From: Eledone cirrhosa
Taxonomy: Eukaryota
Direction: 5' to 3'
Assembly: GCA_964016885.1 (NCBI GenBank)
Contig: OZ024750.1
Location: 23,436,001-23,500,000 of the forward strand
Length of the DNA stretch: 64,000 nt
Position 1 is the first letter of the stretch. Each line of letters opens with the position of its first letter. The notes below the pieces were generated by a model that ran no database searches, was not told the origin of the DNA, and was given only the letters and a program-made list of their open reading frames with translations. The translations under genes were made by a program, and so were the position numbers. Of the stretch, positions 8,373 to 54,000 are shown in pieces.

Positions 8373-9860
8373 AATAACCAGGACCCGACAAAATTCCTTT
8401 GGAATATACAGGGAAACATTTTCAAAGATTATATATGTTTTTTTTTACATATTTGGGAACAGGAACAACTGCCAGGTGACTGGAAGGAGGATAACAAAAT
8501 CAACATCTTCAGAAAATGAGATAAGAGATTATACGACAAGTAAAGAGGAATCTCTCTCCTCTCCATAGCAGGGAAGATATAAAGAAACATCAGAGGAAAC
8601 TTCGGGCCATCATGAACATCAAGTGGCAGGATAAAGCGCGCAACACCACGACACTTGACAGGGCTGTCAGAAGAAGCATCGAAAGCACCATAATGGTGCA
8701 ACGCTTGCGATGGGCGAGACATGTCACACATGAATGAATGCAATTATCCAAGAAAGTTTTCTACGGTGAACTGACTGGAGGAAAACGTCATCTTGGTGCA
8801 CCAAGATTCTGGTTAACAGTAATAATTGTTTATACTTTTGGCACAAGGCCAACAATTACTCCAGTGCATTACTGGTACTTTATTTTATCGAATCCGTAAG
8901 GATGAAAGGCAAAATTAACCTCGGCGGGATTTGAACTCAGAACGTAAAGGGCCATAACTATGTTGCAAAGCATGGTATCTGACGCTCTACCGATACTGCC
9001 ATACAGCAACCGGCATCATGCTGAACGAGGAAGACTTGAAGAAGTGGACAACTTCAAGTACCTAGGATCCAGTCTGACCAAAGATGGCAGATCTCAAGAG
9101 GAGATACTGACAAGACTCTTCTGGTCACTTCTACCATGGGAAAGCAACTCCATCAGATTTCCAACGAAGCTCAAACTATACAAATCCTTGGTGACTTCGA
9201 TCCTTTTGTAAGGGTGTGAGAGTTGGACTTTCACAGCTGACATGCAACGAAGAATCCACTCATTTAAGAATAAGTGCTTCAGAAAGAAGCTACACATCCT
9301 GTACACGGATCACAAAACAAACAACTTTGTCAGGCAGCAAGTTAACAAATATGCTGGCAGACAGGAACAACTCCTTGTAATAATTGTTTCTATTTTAGGC
9401 ACAAGGCCAGCAATTATCCAGTACATTACTGGTACTTTATTTTATCGACCCCATAAGGATGAAAGGCAAAGTTAACCTCGGCGGGATTTGAACTCAGATC
9501 AACTCTTTGTAATAATTGTTTCTACTTTAGGCACAAGGCCAGCAATTACCCAGTGCATTACTGGTACTTTATTTTATCGACCCTGTATAATGAAAAGACG
9601 GAAGCTTACCTGGTATGGTCGTATATCCACCACAACTCATTGTCCAAAATCATCCTTCAGGGCACAGTCGAGAGAGAGAGCGAAAAAGAGGAGGACTAAG
9701 AAAATCTTAGTCCGACAACACCAAAGACTGGATTGGTCACACATCGAGACCCTTCTACGCAAGACGGAGAATAGAGACCAAATGGCGACAACTGACTTTA
9801 AAAGCGTCTAGAGTGGCACCCCAATGACTGGCTGCACCAGTTGCGGGAACATGATGATAC
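8373..9860 (+). mobile_element. Decayed RTE-clade LINE remnants interrupted by SINE A copies
   Basis: Frame-broken RT motifs PGPDKIPLE, RGISLLSIAGKIY, LRWARHV, LEEVDNFKYLGS, KLKLYKSLVTSILL; ATG-repeat tail. Confidence 0.8.
8821..9001 (-). mobile_element. SINE family A
   Basis: Reverse complement of the full consensus, inserted between LINE remnants. Confidence 0.85.
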
Positions 9861-23390: not shown

Positions 23391-24179
23391 AGCTCCACGC
23401 ACACACACACACATCCACCTTGGTTATCCACAGGTCAAACACACCTATGGTCTAATGAATCTAGTGGGTGTGAATAAATGCTTGCCACAATGCATCATGT
23501 CAATATATACTATTATAGATGAGTGCATCATGTCAATATTTGCTATTATACAGAGATTAGTTCTTCAACAACACCAACACCAACAACAATTATCTATAGG
23601 AAGAGGCTATGTAGCTGGTAAGAGTGTCAGACACCATAACTTGCGGCCCGCGTTAACACAATTTAAAATCTTTTCCACCATCAATTGTTAAAAAACAAGT
23701 TTAAACCATTTAGTCGTCCATTCGTAACGTACGTTACGCTTTAGTTACATACACACACATCTTCACATAAATACATAAACAGATACAGACAACAGAAGGA
23801 AAGGGGGCTGGTGAAACGCTATATCGATATATCGATGTGTGTTGCGTCTCTTTAGAGTTTACCGGTTACATAGCCTATTCGTTATTGCTAGGGCGGTTCA
23901 TAGAATCGATTGAAGGTCGGACAAAATGTTTTTGAGATTTGTTTTTGAGATTTATTGCCACAGTTTTCTATATAGTCAATTGTAATATGAAACATTTGGA
24001 TTAGCTTACTTCCATTAGCATGTGCTTCAACATAAACAACATCGTTGTCTTCATTATACAAGTCATATAGCAACCTCATCAGAGACTCTTTACCAACCTG
24101 ATGAACACCTGAGCCCGGAAATTAATGAAATATAGAGCCTAAAGCAGAAATACTGGTCTAACGGTATTTCGATTTTTGC

Positions 24180-27776: not shown

Positions 27777-28035
27777 TTGTTAATACAATACATCATACAA
27801 TAAACATTAACAGATTTACGATAGACTTACGTCCCTTTATGATCTGAGTTCAAATCACGCCGAGATTAACTTTGCCTTTCATCCTTACGGGGTCGATAAA
27901 ATAAAGTACCAGTAATGTACTGGGTAATTGCTGGCCTTGTGCCCAAAGTAGAAACAATTATTAAAATACTCAATAGACATTATTATCATACGAGATTAAT
28001 AATTAACAGATACACACACGATACATTGTTATTAA

Positions 28036-28067
<32 letters not shown>

Positions 28068-28357
28068 TTGTCGATCGACTTTCATCAAATCGGACCGATG
28101 AAACAATGTTTCCATTGGTCTTTCCAATTGTTAATACTATCTATAGGTCGGAACTCCAGGTAGAAGGAGCAACTTGAAATAAAGTGCCTTGTTCAAGGAC
28201 ATAACACGCCGCCCGGTCCAACTGACAACCTCACGATTGCGAATCCAGTTCTCTAACCAATCGGCCACACGCCTTCACAAAATACATCATAAAATAAACA
28301 TTAACAGATTCAAGAGAAGGAAAAATCAAAAAGAACAGTTTTTAAAATTCTTGTTTT

Positions 28358-28363
28358 TTTATT
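28358..28363 (-). terminator. Candidate polyadenylation signal (AATAAA) of the sHSP-like gene
   Basis: tttatt on the plus strand, about 260 nt downstream of the stop codon. AT-rich context, so a chance match is possible. Confidence 0.4.
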
Positions 28364-28621
28364 TCTCCAAGATAAAACTTTGAATACAGGAATTATTGAA
28401 TTAGAAATCAAAGAAACTAGAAGATAATAAAAGAAGGTAATGTTATACAGAGGATAGTAATATGTAGAAAACGTAGAGAAGATAGTAATATATATAAAAC
28501 AATATATATAGAAGATATATTATAGAAGATATAATATATGGAAGATATAATATGTGGAAGATTATAAAATATACTATATTATGGACGTTCACACGGAGAC
28601 GTTCTTTGTTGATGTAGTAAA

Positions 28622-28947
28622 TCAGTTTTTATAATTGATTGGGATTATTATAAGAGGAGGCTCTTTAACTGGAGCCTCAGCTATCAGTGTTTGATTCTGT
28701 ATAATCACCGAAATGTGATCCAATTTGACGGTTTTTGGAAGTATTTCTCCGAGGCTGGTCAAAGTGTTTTGATTGAACATTTTTTTCAGTCCTGTGATCT
28801 GGAAGAACTGGCCTCGGCGAGTCGCGTTTATACTTGAAATATTATATCCAATTAAGTTCAATTTAAATCTCCAAATATATGTATCGTTGTTAATCTTGAC
28901 GAAATTTGCATTAGCTCCAGGTGGAAACTTGAAATAATTACGTATCC
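28622..28947 (-). CDS. Exon 2 (terminal) of the sHSP-like gene (alpha-crystallin-like domain plus IxI motif)
   Basis: Non-repetitive open frame of 107 codons after a strong AG acceptor (28949-28948). Beta-strand alternation, LP..V motif, L...AP motif, terminal IPI. Confidence 0.82.
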
Positions 28948-31900
28948 CTATAAAATGAAAATAGAAATAAGTTAAAGTATATTTCAAATGTCTTCAAAAT
29001 AGAAATATAAAACATTTTTTAATGGAGAATTCGTGACATTTTGATTTGTGATCCTATTAATAAAAAAAATGCCCGAAACCACCACAGGTTAGATGATAGG
29101 AAACCGTTTGTTTTGAAGTGCTTATCTACAAACCTTCCATCATATGTTAAAACATATATCAAGCTATGCTTAATAACTTTTGCTCAAGTTATGCTTAATA
29201 ACCTTTGTCTGTATTTTGGAGAGAAAAAAAAAATCCTCATTAGAGTGAGATTGGTTCCGTGCAAAGCCTTTCCTCACTTAAAAAAGCTTCAAGCACTGGC
29301 ATCGCTTGATATGTGACATTTTTTTGCGATGCATGGTATTGCTGGCCTTAGGCAAGTCCCTAGTAGGATTAAAAAGCTACGTCTATGATACTCATGCTTA
29401 AGTATCAAGCGATGGCATTATCTCGCGAGTTGCAGCCATCATATAATATCGCCTATGACAAGCAGTGAAATTGTGTCCCGGATGCCACTTGCAGCGACAC
29501 TTTCTCCAGCCGCAACCTGGTGCAGTCTGCGACTAACCCAGGTTCTGCTGCACGTCGGGCTGAGGAGACCAAACTCTCCAAGTACCGGCCGCTCTCCGAC
29601 AGGTTTGCGGTCGTACCCTTGGCAGTGGAGACTTCTGGTGTCCTTGGTCCTAGGGCTACCTCCCTTCTCACCACCATAGGCGCTGAGCTGGCCAGCCGCG
29701 GGAGTGAGCCTCGCAAGTTGGAATAGCTCTTCCAGCGCATCTCCCTTACCATTCTCCGGGGTCGTGGGACCTCATTTGCTCATCAGAGAGATGGGGAGGC
29801 GATGACAGTGGGAGTTCGGCTCTTCCACGTTCGGACCATATCCTTGTGGTTGTGTTCATCATCTATAGATAACTATATAACATTTCAATCTTTAACTATG
29901 AACCTAATAATTAATATAAATACTTTAATGATCCAGCCACTATAGTACTTCTCACCCATGATAATCAAAGACAGATCATACATCTCACTCTCTGACGATG
30001 GCTTATCTGACTTGAATAGAAAGTGCTCCTAGTTCAAGTGGCGTCCCCCTTCAAGTGACGCCCATGGCATGAGCCCTGTTTGCCATACTCTAGTTACGCC
30101 TCTGTTTACAGGCCCCAAAGTTTTAGTTTAGATCCAGAAATCATACAGTATTTAATGTGAACTAGGAAATATAAAGCAGTATTGATTTTGAATTATTGAA
30201 TATTCGTGTTCCAGAGAATAAAACAACGAATTGTTGAGTTACAGCTTTTTGATCGATAAATATAGGTGTGTTATATCGCCTGGCTAGTACAAAGAGGAGA
30301 GCAGATGGCGCTGTTGACAGAAGGTTTTGAGAATGTTTACTAAACTTAAAAGATATGTCAAGAATGTAGGTTCCTAATATAAAAAAGATGAGATGGTGAT
30401 GGCTGGAATGATTTTGATCATAAATCTGTTCCATTTAGGCCAGTGTTTCCCAACGTGGGCGTTAGTGCCCCCTTGTGGGTGCTGTTGTGTTGAAAGGGGG
30501 CGCTGGGAGTTTTTATTTCATGGGGGGGGGCGTGAAATCTACTCAGGTGGGTGGTGGGTATTTATCCAATTTTTTTTCTTTCAAATTTTCAAAATTTAAA
30601 AAACACTTTTTCCACTTTGGACTTTGATTGATCCCTGGCGATTAATATATATATATATGCATGCGTTGAAATAATTATAATGAATAAACGATTTATGTAA
30701 CATCACCATCTTTATTAATGTTGTTATCATATATGTATATGTGTGTATAAATGTGTATGTATATTGGTGTGTGTGAATATGCATGCATGTATATGAATGT
30801 GTTTATATATGAATGTATGTATGTAGTTAGTCTATGCAGTTATGTGTGATTTTCGTGACATGTATCAATAATTGTTTCTACTTTTGGCACAAGGCCAGCA
30901 ATTACCCAGTGCATTACTGGTACTTTATTTTATCGACCCCGTAAAGATGAAAGGTAAAGTTAACCTCGGCGGGATTTGAACTCAGAATGGCAAGGGCCGT
31001 AACTATGCGTCAAAGCATGGTGTCCGCCCCTCTACCGATACTGCCAATCCACCACACTCATTCCAATCCACCACCCTCAGCCAATCCACCAATGACAAAG
31101 AAATATATAACAAGGTGACAAATTATCTAACACGACAACAACACAGCGATATAACTGTCCAATGGAAGTATTTATTGTTATTGTTTGAAGTTTTACTGCT
31201 TAAATGATTGATTTCAAACTTAAAATAAACAATCTTTATAGTTTGTTAAATTTACTTCCGTTGTAATGTGTGATTTACGTGACAAGTCTATAACTCTTGA
31301 ACTTTTCGTTATATTTCTAGAGAAAAATACTGCCCATAATTTTGGAAATATTCATAAATCTGGAGGGATTTAGTAATATAATTACCGTATTTCCCGGCGT
31401 CGCAGACGCAATTTTTTTCCTAAAATAAGTCTCAAAAATCTACCATGCGTCCTGGAGGCCGAAGGTTGTTTATTATTATTTTTATTTTATTTTATTTATT
31501 TTTTTTTTTTTAATTTTTGGTTGTCAAAAAAAAAATAATTGTTTCTACTTTAGGCACAAGGCCTGCAATTATCCCAGTGTATTACTGGTACTTTATTTTA
31601 TCGACCCCGTAAGGATGAAAGGCAAAGTTAACCTCAGCGATAATAAACAACCTTCGGCCTCCAGGACGCATGGTAGATAGATTTTTGGGGGGCTTATTTT
31701 AGAAAAAAGTAGCATCTTCAACGCCGGGAAATACGGTAAATAGTTTCGTATCATAGGACCAGGTGTGGTTTCAGGTGGTTTGATATGAAAGGGGTGACAC
31801 TAGCACTTTCTATTGTCGTCCCTAGAGAAGAATTTCAAATCCCACGGGAGGAATGTTAATCAAGGAATCCAAACTAAGGAAGAATAGTATATCTTGTGTA

Positions 31901-34323
31901 TATATCAAATGAAATACTAATATACCCAACTATAAGGGCGATCATGTATTAACTATTGACTAAACCTGCTGCTTCAGACTTAATTCCATTTGAGACTATA
32001 TAATTATTGGAGTTTGAAAAGCTTGCTCAATTTATATGGTACTTGACTAGATGGCGAAGAATTGAGGAAACCTGAGATTGCAAGGAGACGAATGGAAGTT
32101 GGGTCTCTGAGAACCACTGATTTAAGTATTTGAAACTTAAAACTAGCAACAATCCCTACACTGTTAAATTTGCTTGTGTTATAACTTGTGGTATAACTTG
32201 TGGTTTACGTGACATGTGTAAAACTGCCTTATTAGGACTGGAAGACGCTTTTATGCTGAAAGGCCACATTGAAATTAACTGATATCAAATTTTGAAAAAC
32301 AAAATGCTGTCTCGCTAAACCTTAGTTATTTTATGAACTATAATTATTTATAAAAACTGTAACAAATATATTTTTCTACATGTCATAATTAGTTAAATAG
32401 ATAGATATTAAAATCAGTGAAAATATGAAGGTTTGCCTTCGAACGTTGTGCTTCTTTGAGAAGGTCACAGACTCCCCAACCTTGTGTTAGACAATAACAC
32501 TTTCTACTGTTTACTCGAGCGAGGCTTCCAATTTAAAAGTTGTAGTTATCGTCGTTGTCTTCATCAGTTTTACGTTTGCTTTTTCCATGCTTGAATACGC
32601 TGGACGAGTCCATCCCAGCACAGCTTGGTTCCACTTGTTACTTTCCTTCGTCATCTCTTCTGTGAGATTCAACATCCCGAGACAATCTTTCAATACTTCT
32701 GCCAAATCGCAGCATATAAGTCGATGTTTTAAACACGAAAAAAAGCTTTCCAAAACGAAGCAGACGACTTAGAAGGATGAATCGGTATCGCCGAGTGTTA
32801 AGTAAGTGGAGTAGATCTTTACTACAGTGCACTTCTTACTCTAAGTCCAGTAAGATGACACGAATGTTTCCAATTAAAACTTCAGTTCGGTGAACTTATC
32901 TAATATATATAACAAATAGATTTGCTGGTCCCATTATTAAGGAGTCGTAGGGGTGCCTTAAAATTTTATACTCTAGGTTTCACAATAGCCGGTTTCTTCT
33001 CTTCCAGAGAAAAAGAAGAAGAGACTCCAATACAAGATTTGTATTCTATTCATCGAACTCGAAATGATTAAAAGCAAAATTGACCACGGCGGGATTTGAA
33101 CTCAGAGCGCAGATTCATTTCATCTGACGCGCTAACGACTTTGCCAATTCGTCGCCTATAAACGAAGAGATTACTGGTATCAAGAAAAACATTATGACAC
33201 TACAGAACGAAAACAGAGTGTGTGTTGGTGTGGGAGGTTTTGCGTATAAACAAATGTTAACGATGTTTAAAAAAAGATAATATTAAAACAAAGAAGGTTC
33301 CTGAATAGGGAGGAGACGTTCAAGGGACATTCGTGGAAAAAACCCCATAAAACCACGGATGTTTTGATCGTTAAGGTAAGTGCCCTGTCTCAGCTGTACT
33401 CCTTCAATCTACAGGCTTGCACTCAGAGCGGGGCCATGCTCGGCTTCTCTCACCTACCTTTCAACAAATTGCTTTGAAGGCAGCACTTCTCTCTCTACCC
33501 TGATTTGCCTCCTCAAGTGGAACCTAAAGAAGGTAATCAGGGTTTCCTCCAAAGAGGAAATTGCTCGTCTTCAAACCTTCCAAGCATGTCCGATAATAAA
33601 GAAGAAAAAACAACCATAGGAAAGCCATAAATGAATACAGTATATTTAAGCATTTTGAAGAATGTTTACTATTGTATTTTACTATAAGTCAATTTGACCC
33701 GAGAATATCTTTCAATAAGATCTTCAGTAGATCTTATTGTAAGTTTAAGAAGACAATCTAAAACTGCAGCTATAGGCCAAACTGAGCTAGAAACTTAAAA
33801 TCGACTTGTATGCCAGGTTTACTTCACAACAGTTTATATATATCGACAAGATCCCAGACCTCATTCACTTAACGAGTTGGGTGGAGCTCGTCAAATCGGA
33901 CCGAGGAAACAATGTTTTCATCGGTCTTTCCAATTGCTAATACTATCTGTCGGTCGCAAATCCAGGTAGAAGGAGCAACATGAAATCAAAAGTCTTGTTC
34001 AAGGACATAACACATTTCCCGGTCCAGGAATCGAACTCACAACCTCACGATTGCGAATCCAATTCTCTAACCACTCAGCCACACGCCTTCACCATATATA
34101 TATATATCCCTGTTTCAATTGGGGTAACCACAGTAAGTAAGGTACTCAATACATAATAGAGTATATACAATATTTAATATTGAATGAATCAGTTCTAGTC
34201 AGAAGGAGCAACGTGAAATAAAGTGTCTTGCTCAAAGACATAATGTATCACTCGGTCCGGGAATCGAAATCACAACCTCACGATTGCGAATCCAATTCTC
34301 TAACCACTCAGCCATGCGCCTTC

Positions 34324-34398
<75 letters not shown>

Positions 34399-34585
34399 CA
34401 TTTTAAGCAAAATTCAAGTTTACAATATATAGTTAGTTAAAGTTACCTTGAAAAACTGACTCCATATGGGGAAGTTTTGGTAAGAGCGAAGATATGTCAC
34501 CAAATATCGATGCCTCTGCTGTATGCATTGGCAGTAACACGCTGAACAGAACCACACAAAAAACGTATGTTTTAATCGCCGACAT
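28622..34585 (-). CDS. Two-exon gene for a putative secreted small heat-shock/alpha-crystallin-domain protein (154 aa), join(complement(34447..34585),complement(28622..28947))
   Basis: Exon 1 MSAIKTYVFCVVLFSVLLPMHTAEA|SIFGDISSLLPKLPHMESVFQ ends CAA G|GTAACT (phase 1). Exon 2 follows a polypyrimidine tract ...tttcattttatag|GG ATA CGT (phase 1, reconstitutes Gly) and runs open to TGA at 28622. Exon 2 has an ACD-like pattern: FKLNLIGY..SI.A......QITG ... LPKTVKLDHISVII.NQTLIAEAP ... IIIPI. Upstream TATA and downstream AATAAA are present. Confidence 0.8.
29450..29830 (+). mobile_element. CRE-clade non-LTR 3' remnant
   Basis: DATCSDT...GSAARRAEETKLSKYRPL..RFAVVPLAVETSGVLG...LFQRISL.ILRG. Confidence 0.75.
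30868..31052 (-). mobile_element. SINE family A (in the intron of the sHSP-like gene)
   Basis: Full-length reverse-complement copy. Confidence 0.85.
31383..31738. mobile_element. TA-target MITE composite: two inverted right halves around a SINE fragment
   Basis: TIRs at both ends; both arms carry the ggcctccaggacgcatggtag segment in opposite orientation. Confidence 0.7.
34447..34585 (-). CDS. Exon 1 of the sHSP-like gene (signal peptide plus N-terminal region)
   Basis: First ATG after the TATA box, context aagaaaATG. Basic n-region, hydrophobic core VFCVVLFSVLL, A-E-A cleavage motif at residues 23-25. GT donor at 34446-34445. Confidence 0.82.
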
Positions 34586-34748
34586 TTTCTTTGTCGTCTG
34601 TTTCTTAGACTTCACTTCTGAATTAATCGTCTGCCACACCACGGATTTGTTTTATTCAGTCAGTATCGAATCTTCTCTACACCTGTGCAACGTTTCCCCG
34701 TCCTCGTGTCTTCTATCAAAGCTTATTCTATTCGCTACCAACTCTTTT

Positions 34749-34900
34749 TTTATATATGTTGCTGCTGCTGGTGGTACGGTGACAGCTGTTTGTTCCTCCT
34801 ATAACTGTCTGCTGTTGTTGTTGCTGCTGTCGTTGCTTTCTGTTGACTGTAATATAGGATTGGTAGATTCACTGATATGTGGTTACTGAAATTTCTAGAT
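34749..34900 (-). promoter_or_regulatory. Core promoter of the sHSP-like gene: TATA box, CCAAT box, HSE-like element
   Basis: TATATAAA on the minus strand at 34756-34749, about 165 nt upstream of the ATG with no intervening ATG. CCAATC at 34863-34858. GAAatTTCtaGAT at 34888-34900 matches 8 of 9 core positions of nGAAnnTTCnnGAAn. Confidence 0.55.
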
Positions 34901-34947
34901 TAAATAATTTTTTTTTTTTTGGCAAGAATTTCAAAATATTGCAAATA

Positions 34948-35022
<75 letters not shown>

Positions 35023-35400: not shown

Positions 35401-36049
35401 ACACACATATATATATATATATGTGTGTGTGTGTATATATAAATGTGCGCGCACACACACACACACCGGATGATTACTCAATACATGCAAAGCAGAGTAT
35501 AAAGTTATATTTCTCGAAGTTTCGGTGATGGTGCCTTTTTACCTCTTTAAATCATCTAAAGAGGCACCATTACGGAAACTTCAAAGCCACCATCACCACC
35601 ACCTTTTTCTTTCTTCCGGAAATGTACACATGCCTTGAGGGAAGCTGAATATTGAGGGTGTCTGTGGCCTGATGATGTTTGTCATCTTTATACCAGTATA
35701 GTGGTGTGTTTTTGTTTGTTTGTTTGTTTGTTTGTTTTATTACGTCATCGTCTTTCTTTGCGATGTATAAATTTGGTTTAGATTTGTTTCTTGGTTATCG
35801 ATTTCAGGTTTTATTGATTAGACATGAATTATTTGGTGGTTGATTTGCTTGTGTTGGCGTTGTTTTATTATATTAAACGCTGTGCTTTATAGTATCTGTG
35901 TGGTGGGTCTTCCGTAGTTTTAGGTTTGTGGTATTCGTTGTTAAGTGGGGTTGTAGGCTAACTTTGCCTTTCATCCTTACGAGGTCGATAAAATAAAGTA
36001 CCAGTAATGCACTGGGGTAATTGCTGGCCTTGTGCCAATAGTAGAAACA

Positions 36050-40860: not shown

Positions 40861-41954
40861 AAAGTACCAGATTCGGGACTGACGCGAATAAGACCACTGA
40901 AACTGAAATATGATGAGGAAAACAAAAAGAAACCATACACGAATGTTATGTCAATCAAATAAAGGTTTATTTTGAAATGTGTTGCGACAAAATATAAAAA
41001 CAATAGTAATTCCCACACATTGCATTCCTGTTATAAAATAAACAACAAAAGTATCTCGACAAATTTAAACCGTCATTATTTTCACTCTTTTGATACCAAA
41101 CCACACGAAACAGCCCCCGGTTCCATGATACAAACTATTTAATTGAAAATGTTTATATTTATCTAAAAAAAAAAAAAGCCAGTCATCATAATTTTATATA
41201 AGAGCCTCTGTTAAGTTATGTTCCAAACACCAGGCTAATAATTTAAAAACTCTTAATTGTTTTTTAAATAATTTTAGACAATGTCTTTCATTAGAAATAG
41301 GATATTGAAAGGGTTAACGTGTTGTTGTACCCTGCTTGTGTAGTTCTAAATCTAATTTTGTGCAATAATTTGTTGCTGCTGTCGTTACTTTCTGTTGACT
41401 GTAATATAGGATTGGTAGATTCACTGACAAGTGGTTGTCGAAATTTCTAGATTCAATAATTTTTTTTTTTTTTTTTTGAAAGGATTTCAAAATATTGTAA
41501 ATATTGCAAAGACACGCACGCACGCACACACACACGTTTACATTTTGTGTCAAATACGACATGTACTTACATGGTAAATAATGGTTAAAAAATGTTTTAA
41601 AAAATGAATTAGCTATAAACTAATACTTTTTAGACTCAAAGAATATCAGACTCTGGGACATGGCTTTCACCTCAAACATTTGTACAGTTCTAAAATGTCC
41701 TTAAAATAAACCCTGGTATATTATGATTGTGAGAACATTTCTTTGAGGACCACTGGACTTCATTTCTAGGCCATGCAACCAGTTTCAGTCGTCATAGTGT
41801 GACCTTCTTTCAATATCTAAAAAACTGCTCTTGAAGGGTATGCAGAACTTGCGCATGTGAATTTAACACCCTCAGTTAAACCTATAATGTAAACCCCTTC
41901 TCCCAGTTATATGCACCCCACCCTCATGCGCCCCATTCTCCCAAATAAAATAAT

Positions 41955-42079
41955 TTCAACTTAAAGTTTGGTAAACTGGCAAGCACCGATTAACCGAGGA
42001 ATGTGATGATGATGATCATCATCATCATCACATTCCTAAGTTAATCGGTGCTTGCCAGTTTACCAAACTTTAAGTTGAA
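41955..42079. repeat. Near-perfect palindrome centred on (GAT)n/(ATC)n
   Basis: About 60-bp arms, 2 mismatches, no unique spacer. Confidence 0.9.
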
Positions 42080-51000: not shown

Positions 51001-54000
51001 CAGGGGCTGGTGGGAAGTATATTTCATTTACATACAGTCTGGTTTTCACATGGTTTCTACAGCTGGATGCCTTTGGTATCACCAACCACTTTACAGAGTG
51101 TACTGGGTGTGTTTTATTATGTTACTAACACAAAAGAAGTAGTCATGTCTAACACAATTGAAGAGTCCTCTTTGTTTGGTATGGGTTTTATGACCAGATG
51201 CCCTTGCTATCAGCAACTACTTTATAGAGTCTACTGGATGGATTTTAATCATGTCTCCAACACTAGGGATGTTATATCTTTGAAACAACTGAAGAATCCT
51301 CTTGAACCTTTGCTTGGCAAATTTTCTATGACTGAGTGCCCTTCCTATTACCAGCCTCTTTACTGAGTGTACTTGTTTATTTACAGAGCAATGAAAAGTT
51401 ACCAACAACGGATTAGATGGCTTCTTGGAGGAAGCAGAAAGGTGAGTACAACTATTCAAAAGAAATATGAAGGCATGTAACTTAGTGGTTAGATTGTTTA
51501 GCTCACAATCATAAAGTTATAAGTTTGATTCCCAGCTGAGCATTGTGTCCTTGCTGCCCCAGTCCACTTGGCTGGAAAAAATTAGTTGCACCTGTAATTC
51601 AATGGGAAAGCTTTATCACACACTGTGTCATGCTGAATCTCCCTGAGAACTTAATTATTAAAAAGGCAAGAAGGGCGGTGGATTGGCAGTATCAGTAGAG
51701 GGTCGGACGGCCTGCTTTGCAGCATAGAGTTACGCCCCTTTATGATCCTGCCGAAGTTAACTTTGCCTTTCATCCTTACGGGGTCGATAAAATAAAGTAG
51801 CAGTCACGCACTTGGATCGATTTAATCGACTTTCTCCTCCCCCAAAATTGCTGGCCTTGTGCCTATATAAGAAACCATTATTAAAAAGGCAAGAGAAGAT
51901 AAGGGTGAAGATTGTTTTCTTGATATATTATGCTGTTGTGCATTTGAGCGTTTTAATTGCAAGTAAAACTAGAGCAGGGTGCGATGGTAAACTATTTCCT
52001 TAACTCTCAATGTCCTGTACTACATGAAGCCACATTAGCAAGACATTCTTCAAGAATACAAAACAGAAAATAAAGTCTTTACTTTAATATTGCAAATTTT
52101 TACAACTATCTGTTCTCTAGTGAAAATATATAAACATTTGAATTAACAAACCACATGAAACCATATATTCTGACTAAGCCCCAGATTAAATAGATACACC
52201 ATATCCCTGTGTGTTGTAAGAAGCAACTAAAAGAGTTGGTGTCAGGAAGGGCATCCAGTGGTAAAACATTTCCTCAAAATGTCCTGTCCAACCCATGCCA
52301 ACATTGGAAAGTCAGTGTAAAAACAACAATGATGATGATGAAATTACATTCATGAGACATTCTTGAAAAGTACAAAGCAACACTATGACTAAATTACATT
52401 AAAAATTAAATTCTGTACTTTAATCCTTTAGCATTTGCATTACTCTATATATACTATTGTATTTTTGTGGTAAAGCTTTATCTTACATAGTTATCTCACA
52501 TAATACCGAATCTACGAGATTTCGATGTTATTTATTTTAAGAACAATACCTTTACATCAGTATGAGCGGCCAGTTTGAACAGAAAGAGAATTCTGGCCAG
52601 ATATGCCCAGTTTAAATGCTAAAGGGTTAATACAGCAAATTTTCACAACAAACTATCCACTATAAACTATAAAGAATGATTTAACTAAATTGTTTTTTAG
52701 ATATCTTTTCTACATCATTACAGGATGTTAAGAGTTAACATGTGCAGCTGTGACTGTGTTTTTGAGTATTTTAATTACCTGTAAGATATGATGGGGGGGA
52801 GGTGAAAGATTGGTTCCTTGTTATGTGAATTGACTGTATTTAAGTTAGCTGTCGTATAAATCAAGAAAGGAAAAGGTGAAAGACTACTTCCTCAATATGT
52901 GCAGCAGTGACAATGTTTCTGAATGTTTTAATTATCTGTTGTGCAGGACAAGAGAGGTGGGAAGTAGAAAACTGTTACTATAAATTAACTGTTTTTTAAT
53001 GGTTTTATTTCCTGTAAAACTAAGGCAGGTGAGGTTGAAGGTTGTTTCCTTAATATATGAGGTGACTGTATTATGTGAGGGTTTAATTTTTTGTTCCAAG
53101 CTCAACGCTACCTTTCATCCTTTCAAGGTCAATAAATATAGTATCGGTACAGAATTGGGGGTCAAATCTTCCTCTATATCTCTTTACTACTTTCACTAAC
53201 TCAGTTCATACCTGAAGTGAGAGGGGTTCCACCAGGTTTAAAATGCCTAAAACATGATGTGAGTTACAATCACATTGATGACAAACTGTATTCGTCTTTG
53301 TCTTTCCTTGCACAGCATTGTGTATATATAGTGTATATATAATATATATATAGTAAATATATAGTGTATATATGAGTTGCAACACTATCAACCTATACAG
53401 CATTATATATTGTGTATATTAGGGCAGTGGATTGACAGTATCGGTAGAGGGTCAGACGCCATGCTTTGTAGCATAAAATAATTTACCAGTAATGCACTGG
53501 GATAATTGCTGGCCTTGTGCCAAAAGAAGAAACAATTATATATTATATATATATATATAGTGTATATATAATAGAAGTAGTTCCACAACAGTTAGTTCAC
53601 CATACCGAGAACAAATGTTTCACTTTGTGGATCATCAGCTTGGTCTGATGATCCACAAAGTGAAACATTTGTTCTTGGTATGGTGAACTAACTGTTGTGG
53701 AACTACTTCTACCAAACTCGTCCCATGGACTGAGTACTCTACTACTACGGATATAACCCTCCAGTGTCCTACTATTATGTGTATATATAATATATATATA
53801 TTGTATATATAATATATATGTTGTATATATAAATAATAGGCGCATAGCTTAGTGGTTAGAGCATTGGGCTTGCAATCGAAAGGTTGTGAGTTCAATTCTC
53901 AGACCGGGTGATGTGTTGTTTCCTTGAGCAAGACACTTTATTTCACATTGCTCCAGTTTACTCAGCTGTAGAAATGAGATGATAGGGACTGGGGTCCCTA

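Follow-up and report, generated by a model that had tools for sequence, protein, structure and literature searches.

A candidate secreted, N-glycosylated small heat-shock protein in the octopus Eledone cirrhosa

Among small heat-shock proteins (sHSPs), wheat TaHSP23.9 carries a signal peptide of 26 residues and resides in the endoplasmic reticulum (ER) (PMC7069362). For animals, two sources name other compartments. A survey of annelid sHSPs that used SignalP, TargetP, and DeepLoc assigned five clusters to the nucleus, cytoplasm, or mitochondrion and named ER classes for plants (PMC9075518), and the organelle-targeted animal sHSPs in PMC10014586 are mitochondrial. Mammalian HSPB1 and HSPB5 are found outside cells without a signal peptide, by unconventional secretion. 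The oviduct secretions of the bean bug contain an HSP20, with no signal peptide mentioned in the available sections (PMC12152657). The available portions of PMC9570420, PMC8382682, PMC2745388, PMC12081433, PMC5447177, and PMC6641155 describe no sHSP with a signal peptide, and the terms “signal peptide,” “secret,” and “endoplasmic” do not occur in that of the Bombyx sHSP survey (PMC2745388). Here, we analyzed a 64,000-nucleotide stretch of the Eledone cirrhosa genome (GenBank assembly GCA_964016885.1, contig OZ024750.1, positions 23,436,001 to 23,500,000 of the forward strand), hereafter the window. It holds a two-exon gene for a protein with a signal-peptide-like N-terminus, N-glycosylation sequons, and a predicted alpha-crystallin domain (ACD), which an earlier note on this DNA had proposed to be a secreted sHSP. 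In our judgement, it is an even call that the product, as an N-glycosylated sHSP released by the classical secretory route, serves outside the cell as an ATP-independent holdase for secreted proteins.

The window is repeat-rich, with 37% GC, in a genome of 3.0 Gb. The sHSP gene lies on the minus strand, and a scripted splice joins its two coding exons in phase 1 into 154 codons followed by TGA. Coding exon 1 (34447-34585) comprises 139 nt, or 46 codons plus 1 nt, and covers the predicted signal peptide and the start of an amphipathic N-terminal region; the Octopus bimaculoides orthologue matches it. Its reading frame is closed upstream at ~34652. The phase 1, GT-AG intron (28948-34446) is 5,499 nt long and contains many repeats, with a donor of CAAG/GTAACT and an acceptor formed by a pyrimidine tract and TAG/G (slashes mark the exon borders). 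Coding exon 2 (28622-28947) encodes the rest of the N-terminal region, the predicted seven-stranded ACD (~residues 58-140), all four sequons, the IPI motif, and the stop. The 5′ untranslated portion of exon 1 (34586-34698) has no ATG and lies within a spliced contig that starts at 34698, 51 nt below a TATA box (TATAAA, 34749-34754). The 3′ untranslated region (28358-28621), into which the contig extends to ~28387, ends in AATAAA at 28363-28358 with a T-rich stretch past it. This is the sole AATAAA or ATTAAA within 28000-28625.

Exon 2 is present in four public runs (X1-X4) from one study, which are of a kind not on record. In run X2, a single 813-nt contig matches 34698-34446 and 28949-28480 with 0 mismatches; what either match leaves over corresponds to the other exon, and the lengths sum exactly (252 + 468 + 93 = 813 nt). 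Contigs from X1, X3, and X4 read unspliced through the border between exon 1 and the intron, as expected of genomic DNA. Genome searches found no processed copy of the gene, and the X2 contig is therefore most likely derived from mRNA. The gene is transcribed and spliced, on the evidence of one contig of one study. The earlier note had joined two open reading frame fragments into a 154-aa protein with a TATA box and a polyadenylation signal, and the contig, which crosses the 34447/28947 junction, bears out that gene model.

Relatives were sought in protein databases. Three matches came from HMMER, run over 1.84 billion representatives: P0003, which is O. bimaculoides XP_014775593.1 (LOC106872931; UniRef A0A0L8H4J0, labelled “SHSP domain-containing protein” by automatic annotation); P0004, a transcript-derived protein of 176 aa; and P0005, a 1259-aa repeat protein whose 32-residue match was put down to chance. 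O. vulgaris CAI9716889.1 and P0043-P0046 were found with a profile search, which brought the relatives to seven among 1,736 candidates; a word-based protein search with exon 2 gave no match. With the window protein, the family has eight distinct members in two subgroups of four, one of them octopod-like and the other, as a guess, perhaps from squid or cuttlefish, with 25-35% identity between subgroups. No named family protein came from a gastropod, bivalve, or chiton in these searches of limited sensitivity, despite such species being in the database. The window protein is 54% identical over its whole length, across both exons, to the O. bimaculoides and O. vulgaris orthologues, which are 87% identical to each other. 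Its C-terminal end falls 10 residues short of theirs, and it lacks two of their sequons, having N131 instead. The gene, which the earlier note had read as a lineage-specific derivative, belongs to a small, conserved family. It is not unique to this genome, and its O. bimaculoides member already carried an sHSP label.

Two observations on family members deserve mention. P0045, on a 266-kb contig, is a gene call without a signal peptide that begins a few residues before the Gly matching the window intron position. It may be an exon 2 read from the intron acceptor, which would imply a conserved intron; a similar Leu-Ala-Gly also occurs in the transcript-derived P0004. For the O. bimaculoides orthologue, ESM Atlas gave as its best feature match (0.87) a 210-aa cluster without annotation, made up of 83 proteins that are mostly from arthropods and share no Pfam family. 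As a lead only, this cluster may represent a further ACD family, divergent or secreted.

We modeled the exon 2 product with AlphaFold2 using a family-only alignment. The model has seven strands (pLDDT 82, pTM 0.70) and superimposes on the human alphaB ACD with a Z score of 11.3 and a root mean square deviation of 2.5 Å over 81 aligned residues. Foldseek and VIA-align returned, among the matches listed (50 of them from VIA-align), sHSP or crystallin chains throughout, in line with the fold that the earlier note had proposed checking in this way. The O. bimaculoides orthologue gave the same ACD result in its own model and in ESM Atlas. In the predicted topology, β5 and the fused β6+7 strand are linked by a two-residue turn, with no swapped β6 loop, which is the animal type. 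The family profile searched against the PDB matched sHSPs in 14 of 14 cases at E ≤1, the best being Caenorhabditis elegans Sip1 (4ydz; 5.4e-9). At E ≤0.1, PF00011 matched six of the ten rows of the family alignment, and P0004 passes the curated cut-off. On a hidden Markov model of 31 molluscan-type sHSPs, the score of the window protein was equalled by 21 of 500 shuffles; P0045 scored 26.7 bits against a shuffle maximum of 6.4. Searches of Pfam and the PDB with exon 2 alone also gave weak matches of 15-19 residues to the ATP synthase subunit DAPIT, taken as chance. Because of the bridge through the family and the predicted fold, there is a strong case that the window protein belongs to the sHSP/ACD superfamily, by fold and transitive homology rather than by direct sequence match.

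The rest of the sHSP layout is also present. The N-terminal region is amphipathic and 16-20% aromatic, as the Phe-rich linker of the earlier note would have it, and the C-terminal IxI motif described there is an IPI at residues 148-150, invariant in all ten rows.

The predicted signal peptide covers residues 1-25 (34511-34585, minus strand), with K5, an uncharged run at 6-20, a hydrophobic core at 8-18, and a -3/-1 site at AEA/S. We scored signal peptides by scripted hydropathy and hand-made -3/-1 rules in the five full-length family members, leaving out three N-terminally incomplete gene calls. The top nine-residue hydropathy within residues 1-30 is 2.81-3.20 in all five, compared with ≤1.49 in 35 of 35 ordinary sHSPs and ≤1.24 in three ordinary sHSP genes of this genome. 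In each of the five, residues 1-30 include at most a single Arg, which sets them apart from mitochondrial presequences, and none of the five has a second membrane-length segment. The window protein has sequons at N67, N82, N87, and N131. The N87 column is a sequon in all ten rows (eight distinct proteins; two rows are near-duplicates) and the N67 column in all eight rows that cover it. N82 is kept in six of ten rows, and N105 in nine of ten, the window protein being the exception. Asn residues fall within sequons in 32 of 86 cases in the family versus 21 of 196 in ordinary sHSPs, and three of the family sites are at strand-strand turns of the predicted model. With two sequons (Asn and Thr) kept across ~27% identity, the pattern is hard to explain otherwise than by probable glycosylation. 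We regard entry into the secretory pathway as very highly probable from these patterns, which match the cleavable leader and four sequons of the earlier note.

Outside the secretory route, the product could be an sHSP of the cytosol, nucleus, or mitochondrion, with a hydrophobic N-terminus and sequons that have no bearing on its location. Known animal sHSPs are assigned to these compartments (PMC9075518, PMC8586346, and PMC10014586). The hydrophobic N-terminus of all five members, the two fully conserved sequons, and the splice that joins exon 2 to the signal exon, the sole form seen in run contigs, make it a highly improbable reading here. Scarcely more probable is a type II membrane protein with an uncleaved N-terminal anchor and a glycosylated ACD facing the lumen or surface. 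The uncharged run is 15 residues here. In the Octopus orthologues it extends over 23, and the -3/-1 rule gave them no site past the hydrophobic core. However, the core of ~11 residues is on the short side for spanning a bilayer, and three of the five full-length members have clear -3/-1 sites.

Past the ER membrane, the protein might stay inside as a chaperone of the ER or of granules, comparable to the plant ER sHSPs but held by partners rather than by KDEL. The combination of signal peptide and ACD is as in ER-localized wheat TaHSP23.9 (PMC7069362), and sequons would suit any luminal location. Against residence, no KDEL- or HDEL-type end was found in the five full-length members, as the earlier note had remarked for the window protein, and their C-termini are variable (NYKN in the window protein; QYTN, QYRN, VKAT, and VHIN). 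Fast evolution, described below, is unusual among housekeeping ER chaperones and also counts against it. We regard residence as unlikely and export beyond the ER as probable.

The upstream region was scored with the nGAAn heat-shock-element consensus, and it contains motifs that the earlier note had not mentioned. Distal motifs at 35506-35582 comprise a perfect three-unit element at 35511 and a one-mismatch element at 35570, and a proximal motif at 34883-34900, ~130 bp above the TATA box, has four alternating units with two mismatches. The 1 kb above the start holds four matches (three elements) of the window's 20 with ≤1 mismatch, including one of its two perfect ones. Other 1-kb tiles of the window have two at most, and none of 500 dinucleotide shuffles reached four. 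Neither element is a genome-wide repeat in a DNA search. Among ordinary sHSP genes of this genome, L002 has five matches in 1.3 kb, and L003 and L007 have none. These motifs make a weak to moderate case for possible induction by heat-shock factor. Two structural features of the region were also observed. A short inverted repeat at 35500-35590, single-copy in the genome search, carries a heat-shock-element-like motif in each arm. A 160-bp promoter piece (34818-34979) that includes the proximal motif is duplicated in the same orientation 6.5 kb upstream at 41370-41535, with 87% identity; only these two copies were found in the genome, with no coding paralogue behind the duplicate.

Several findings weigh against a secreted sHSP chaperone. 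PF00011 matches neither the window protein, as exon 2 or spliced, nor any of the four octopod rows, and the Pfam check that the earlier note had suggested thus fails for the protein itself and succeeds only through the six matching family rows. A profile-profile comparison of the first, four-row family alignment with molluscan sHSPs gave a probability of only 25% (E 8e-4). The β7 Arg (HSPB1 R140) is Leu112 in the window protein and Leu, Ile, Val, or Tyr across all family rows; the Tyr/Phe two residues past it is replaced in all members; and the β9 Gly is Gln, Lys, Asn, Asp, or His in all rows. In the window protein, DG has become NQ at residues 131-132, and the Leu of the β9 G-x-L is invariant in the family. 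The earlier note was right in seeing both the β7 Arg and the β9 Gly as substituted. These residues are typical of sHSPs, not strictly required. Their loss is as compatible with an abandoned ancestral function as with an altered one. The rows behind the sequon counts are related, so that the counts are not independent, and the per-sequence excess over shuffles is modest (P 0.009-0.15). The promoter tile was picked after the motifs had been seen, two of its matches overlap, and two are the arms of one inverted repeat. Finally, the protein evolves fast. It is 54% identical to its Octopus orthologues, compared with 89% between an ordinary sHSP of this genome and O. bimaculoides (82% to Argonauta hians), and its end branch in the ACD tree is 0.74 versus 0.079. 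Such a pattern is often seen in secretions with structural, reproductive, or immune roles.

The main rival is a structural role: a secreted glycoprotein off chaperone duty, whose self-assembly through the ACD and IPI motif would supply structural or adhesive material to a secretion (mucus, skin, egg coat, spermatophore, or sucker cuticle), comparable to the co-opted crystallins of lenses. We consider this possible and clearly less probable than the holdase. The replaced residues and the rate of change speak for it, as do a basic mature chain (pI 9.9) and the confinement of the family to few animals in the searches made. Yet the full sHSP layout is kept, including the aromatic amphipathic N-terminal region and the IPI motif; heat-shock-element-like motifs lie upstream; the gene is single-copy rather than part of an expanded structural family; and the mature chain has no Cys for disulfide cross-links. 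The sole Cys is C10, within the predicted signal peptide, in keeping with the Cys-free mature chain of the earlier note. At 14.7 kDa, the mature chain is within the 12-43 kDa size range of sHSPs.

A secreted holdase would work as follows, each step past transcription, splicing, and the predicted metazoan-type fold being read from features of the sequence. The chain would enter the ER by its signal peptide and be cleaved after Ala25, as the conserved n/h/c pattern suggests. It would be glycosylated at N67 and N87, as family-wide, and at N82 and N131, judging from positional conservation. With no KDEL/HDEL end and no second hydrophobic segment, it would be exported beyond the ER. The kept tripartite sHSP layout suggests that it would bind unfolding secreted proteins without ATP, with the IPI motif docking in the β4/β8 groove of a neighbor and, together with the N-terminus, driving oligomer assembly. 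The lost β7 Arg and a β5-β7 hairpin 3-5 residues shorter than in the ordinary sHSPs of this genome may weaken or change the usual dimer, so that small or glycan-capped oligomers would be favored. Heat-shock factor may induce the gene through the upstream motifs. More tentatively, and at somewhat less than even chances, we propose a cephalopod-dedicated extracellular sHSP that gained access to the ER through a new signal exon. It would be glycosylated at fixed sites, lack the dimer salt bridge, remain under heat-shock-factor control, and give secreted proteins a clusterin-like protection.

Genome searches with four family proteins found this locus only, a count that is a lower bound. One paralogue candidate on C4, an E 0.9 match containing a stop, was rejected. 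A PF00011 search of the genome gave eight matches in ~6 other genes on other contigs and did not match this locus. In a tree of 42 ACDs that has no plant or bacterial rows, a very long branch (100/100) sets the family apart, with no resolved sister among ordinary sHSPs. The spliceosomal intron, the short hairpin, and the best matches to metazoan sHSPs argue against an origin by transfer, and ESM Atlas feature matches to bacterial HSP20 clusters (0.90) were taken as no sign of one. A metagenome scan for DNA of relatives gave 335 pattern matches, none confirmed. The window intron is in phase 1, 20 codons before the first conserved sequon, and two ordinary sHSP genes have apparent phase-0 acceptors at the start of the ACD. 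A new signal exon may have been recruited. Elsewhere in the genome, intronless sHSP genes with two ACDs encode 320 and 316 aa (L003/L005, G000:C2; L007/L009, G000:C1), and a third two-domain locus (L008, G000:C15) has an internal stop or intron.

Other features of the window were also noted. A 125-bp near-perfect palindrome at 41955-42079 is 96% self-complementary with a centre of ATG/CAT repeats, and is MITE-like or an assembly feature. A 77-codon open frame at 23891-24121 (minus strand), one of 15 frames scanned, has a weak Methyltransf_14 match (E 0.002, below the cut-off). A partial tRNA match at 53845-53902 (plus strand) probably marks a SINE head. At 8500-9800, LINE-like reading frames in broken form were seen by eye, with a weak DUF6451 match.

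A few lepidopteran sHSPs have predicted signal peptides. Literature searches, whose coverage misses most subscription journals, turned up neither this family nor a signal-peptide-bearing sHSP from any animal, and no paper naming the orthologue identifiers (LOC106872931 and others). As far as searched, the family is a new secretory variant of the sHSP in animals. If the proposal holds, classical secretion would be known for the first time in a class of animal sHSPs, and the octopus family would offer a natural test of whether an ACD can serve as a glycosylated extracellular holdase. The β7 Arg is mutated in human disease, and a family that has lost it would inform on what that residue does. Because the protein is small, has a cysteine-free mature chain, and should be easily expressed, the claim lends itself to direct testing.

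Clusterin, a secreted, glycosylated vertebrate chaperone of the holdase type, would be a functional analogue. However, clusterin is not an ACD protein, and no search gave a sequence or fold match to it. The plant ER-class sHSPs end in a KDEL/HDEL-type retention motif, whereas the present family has no such motif and has the short, animal-type β5-β7 hairpin. What wheat TaHSP23.9 and rice OsHSP23.2 share with the family is the succession of signal peptide, N-terminal region, and ACD (PMC7069362). We infer an origin independent of the plant class. Metazoan sHSPs such as C. elegans Sip1 (4ydz), HSPB1, alphaB, and Taenia Tsp36 differ from the family in its signal-peptide-like N-terminus, its conserved sequons, its lack of the β7 Arg and β9 Gly, its hairpin shorter by 3-5 residues, and the position of its octopod members below Pfam detection. 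Yet it is they that give the best sequence and fold matches in the PDB, and they share with it the seven-stranded ACD with a fused β6+7 strand, the aromatic N-terminal region, and the IPI motif.

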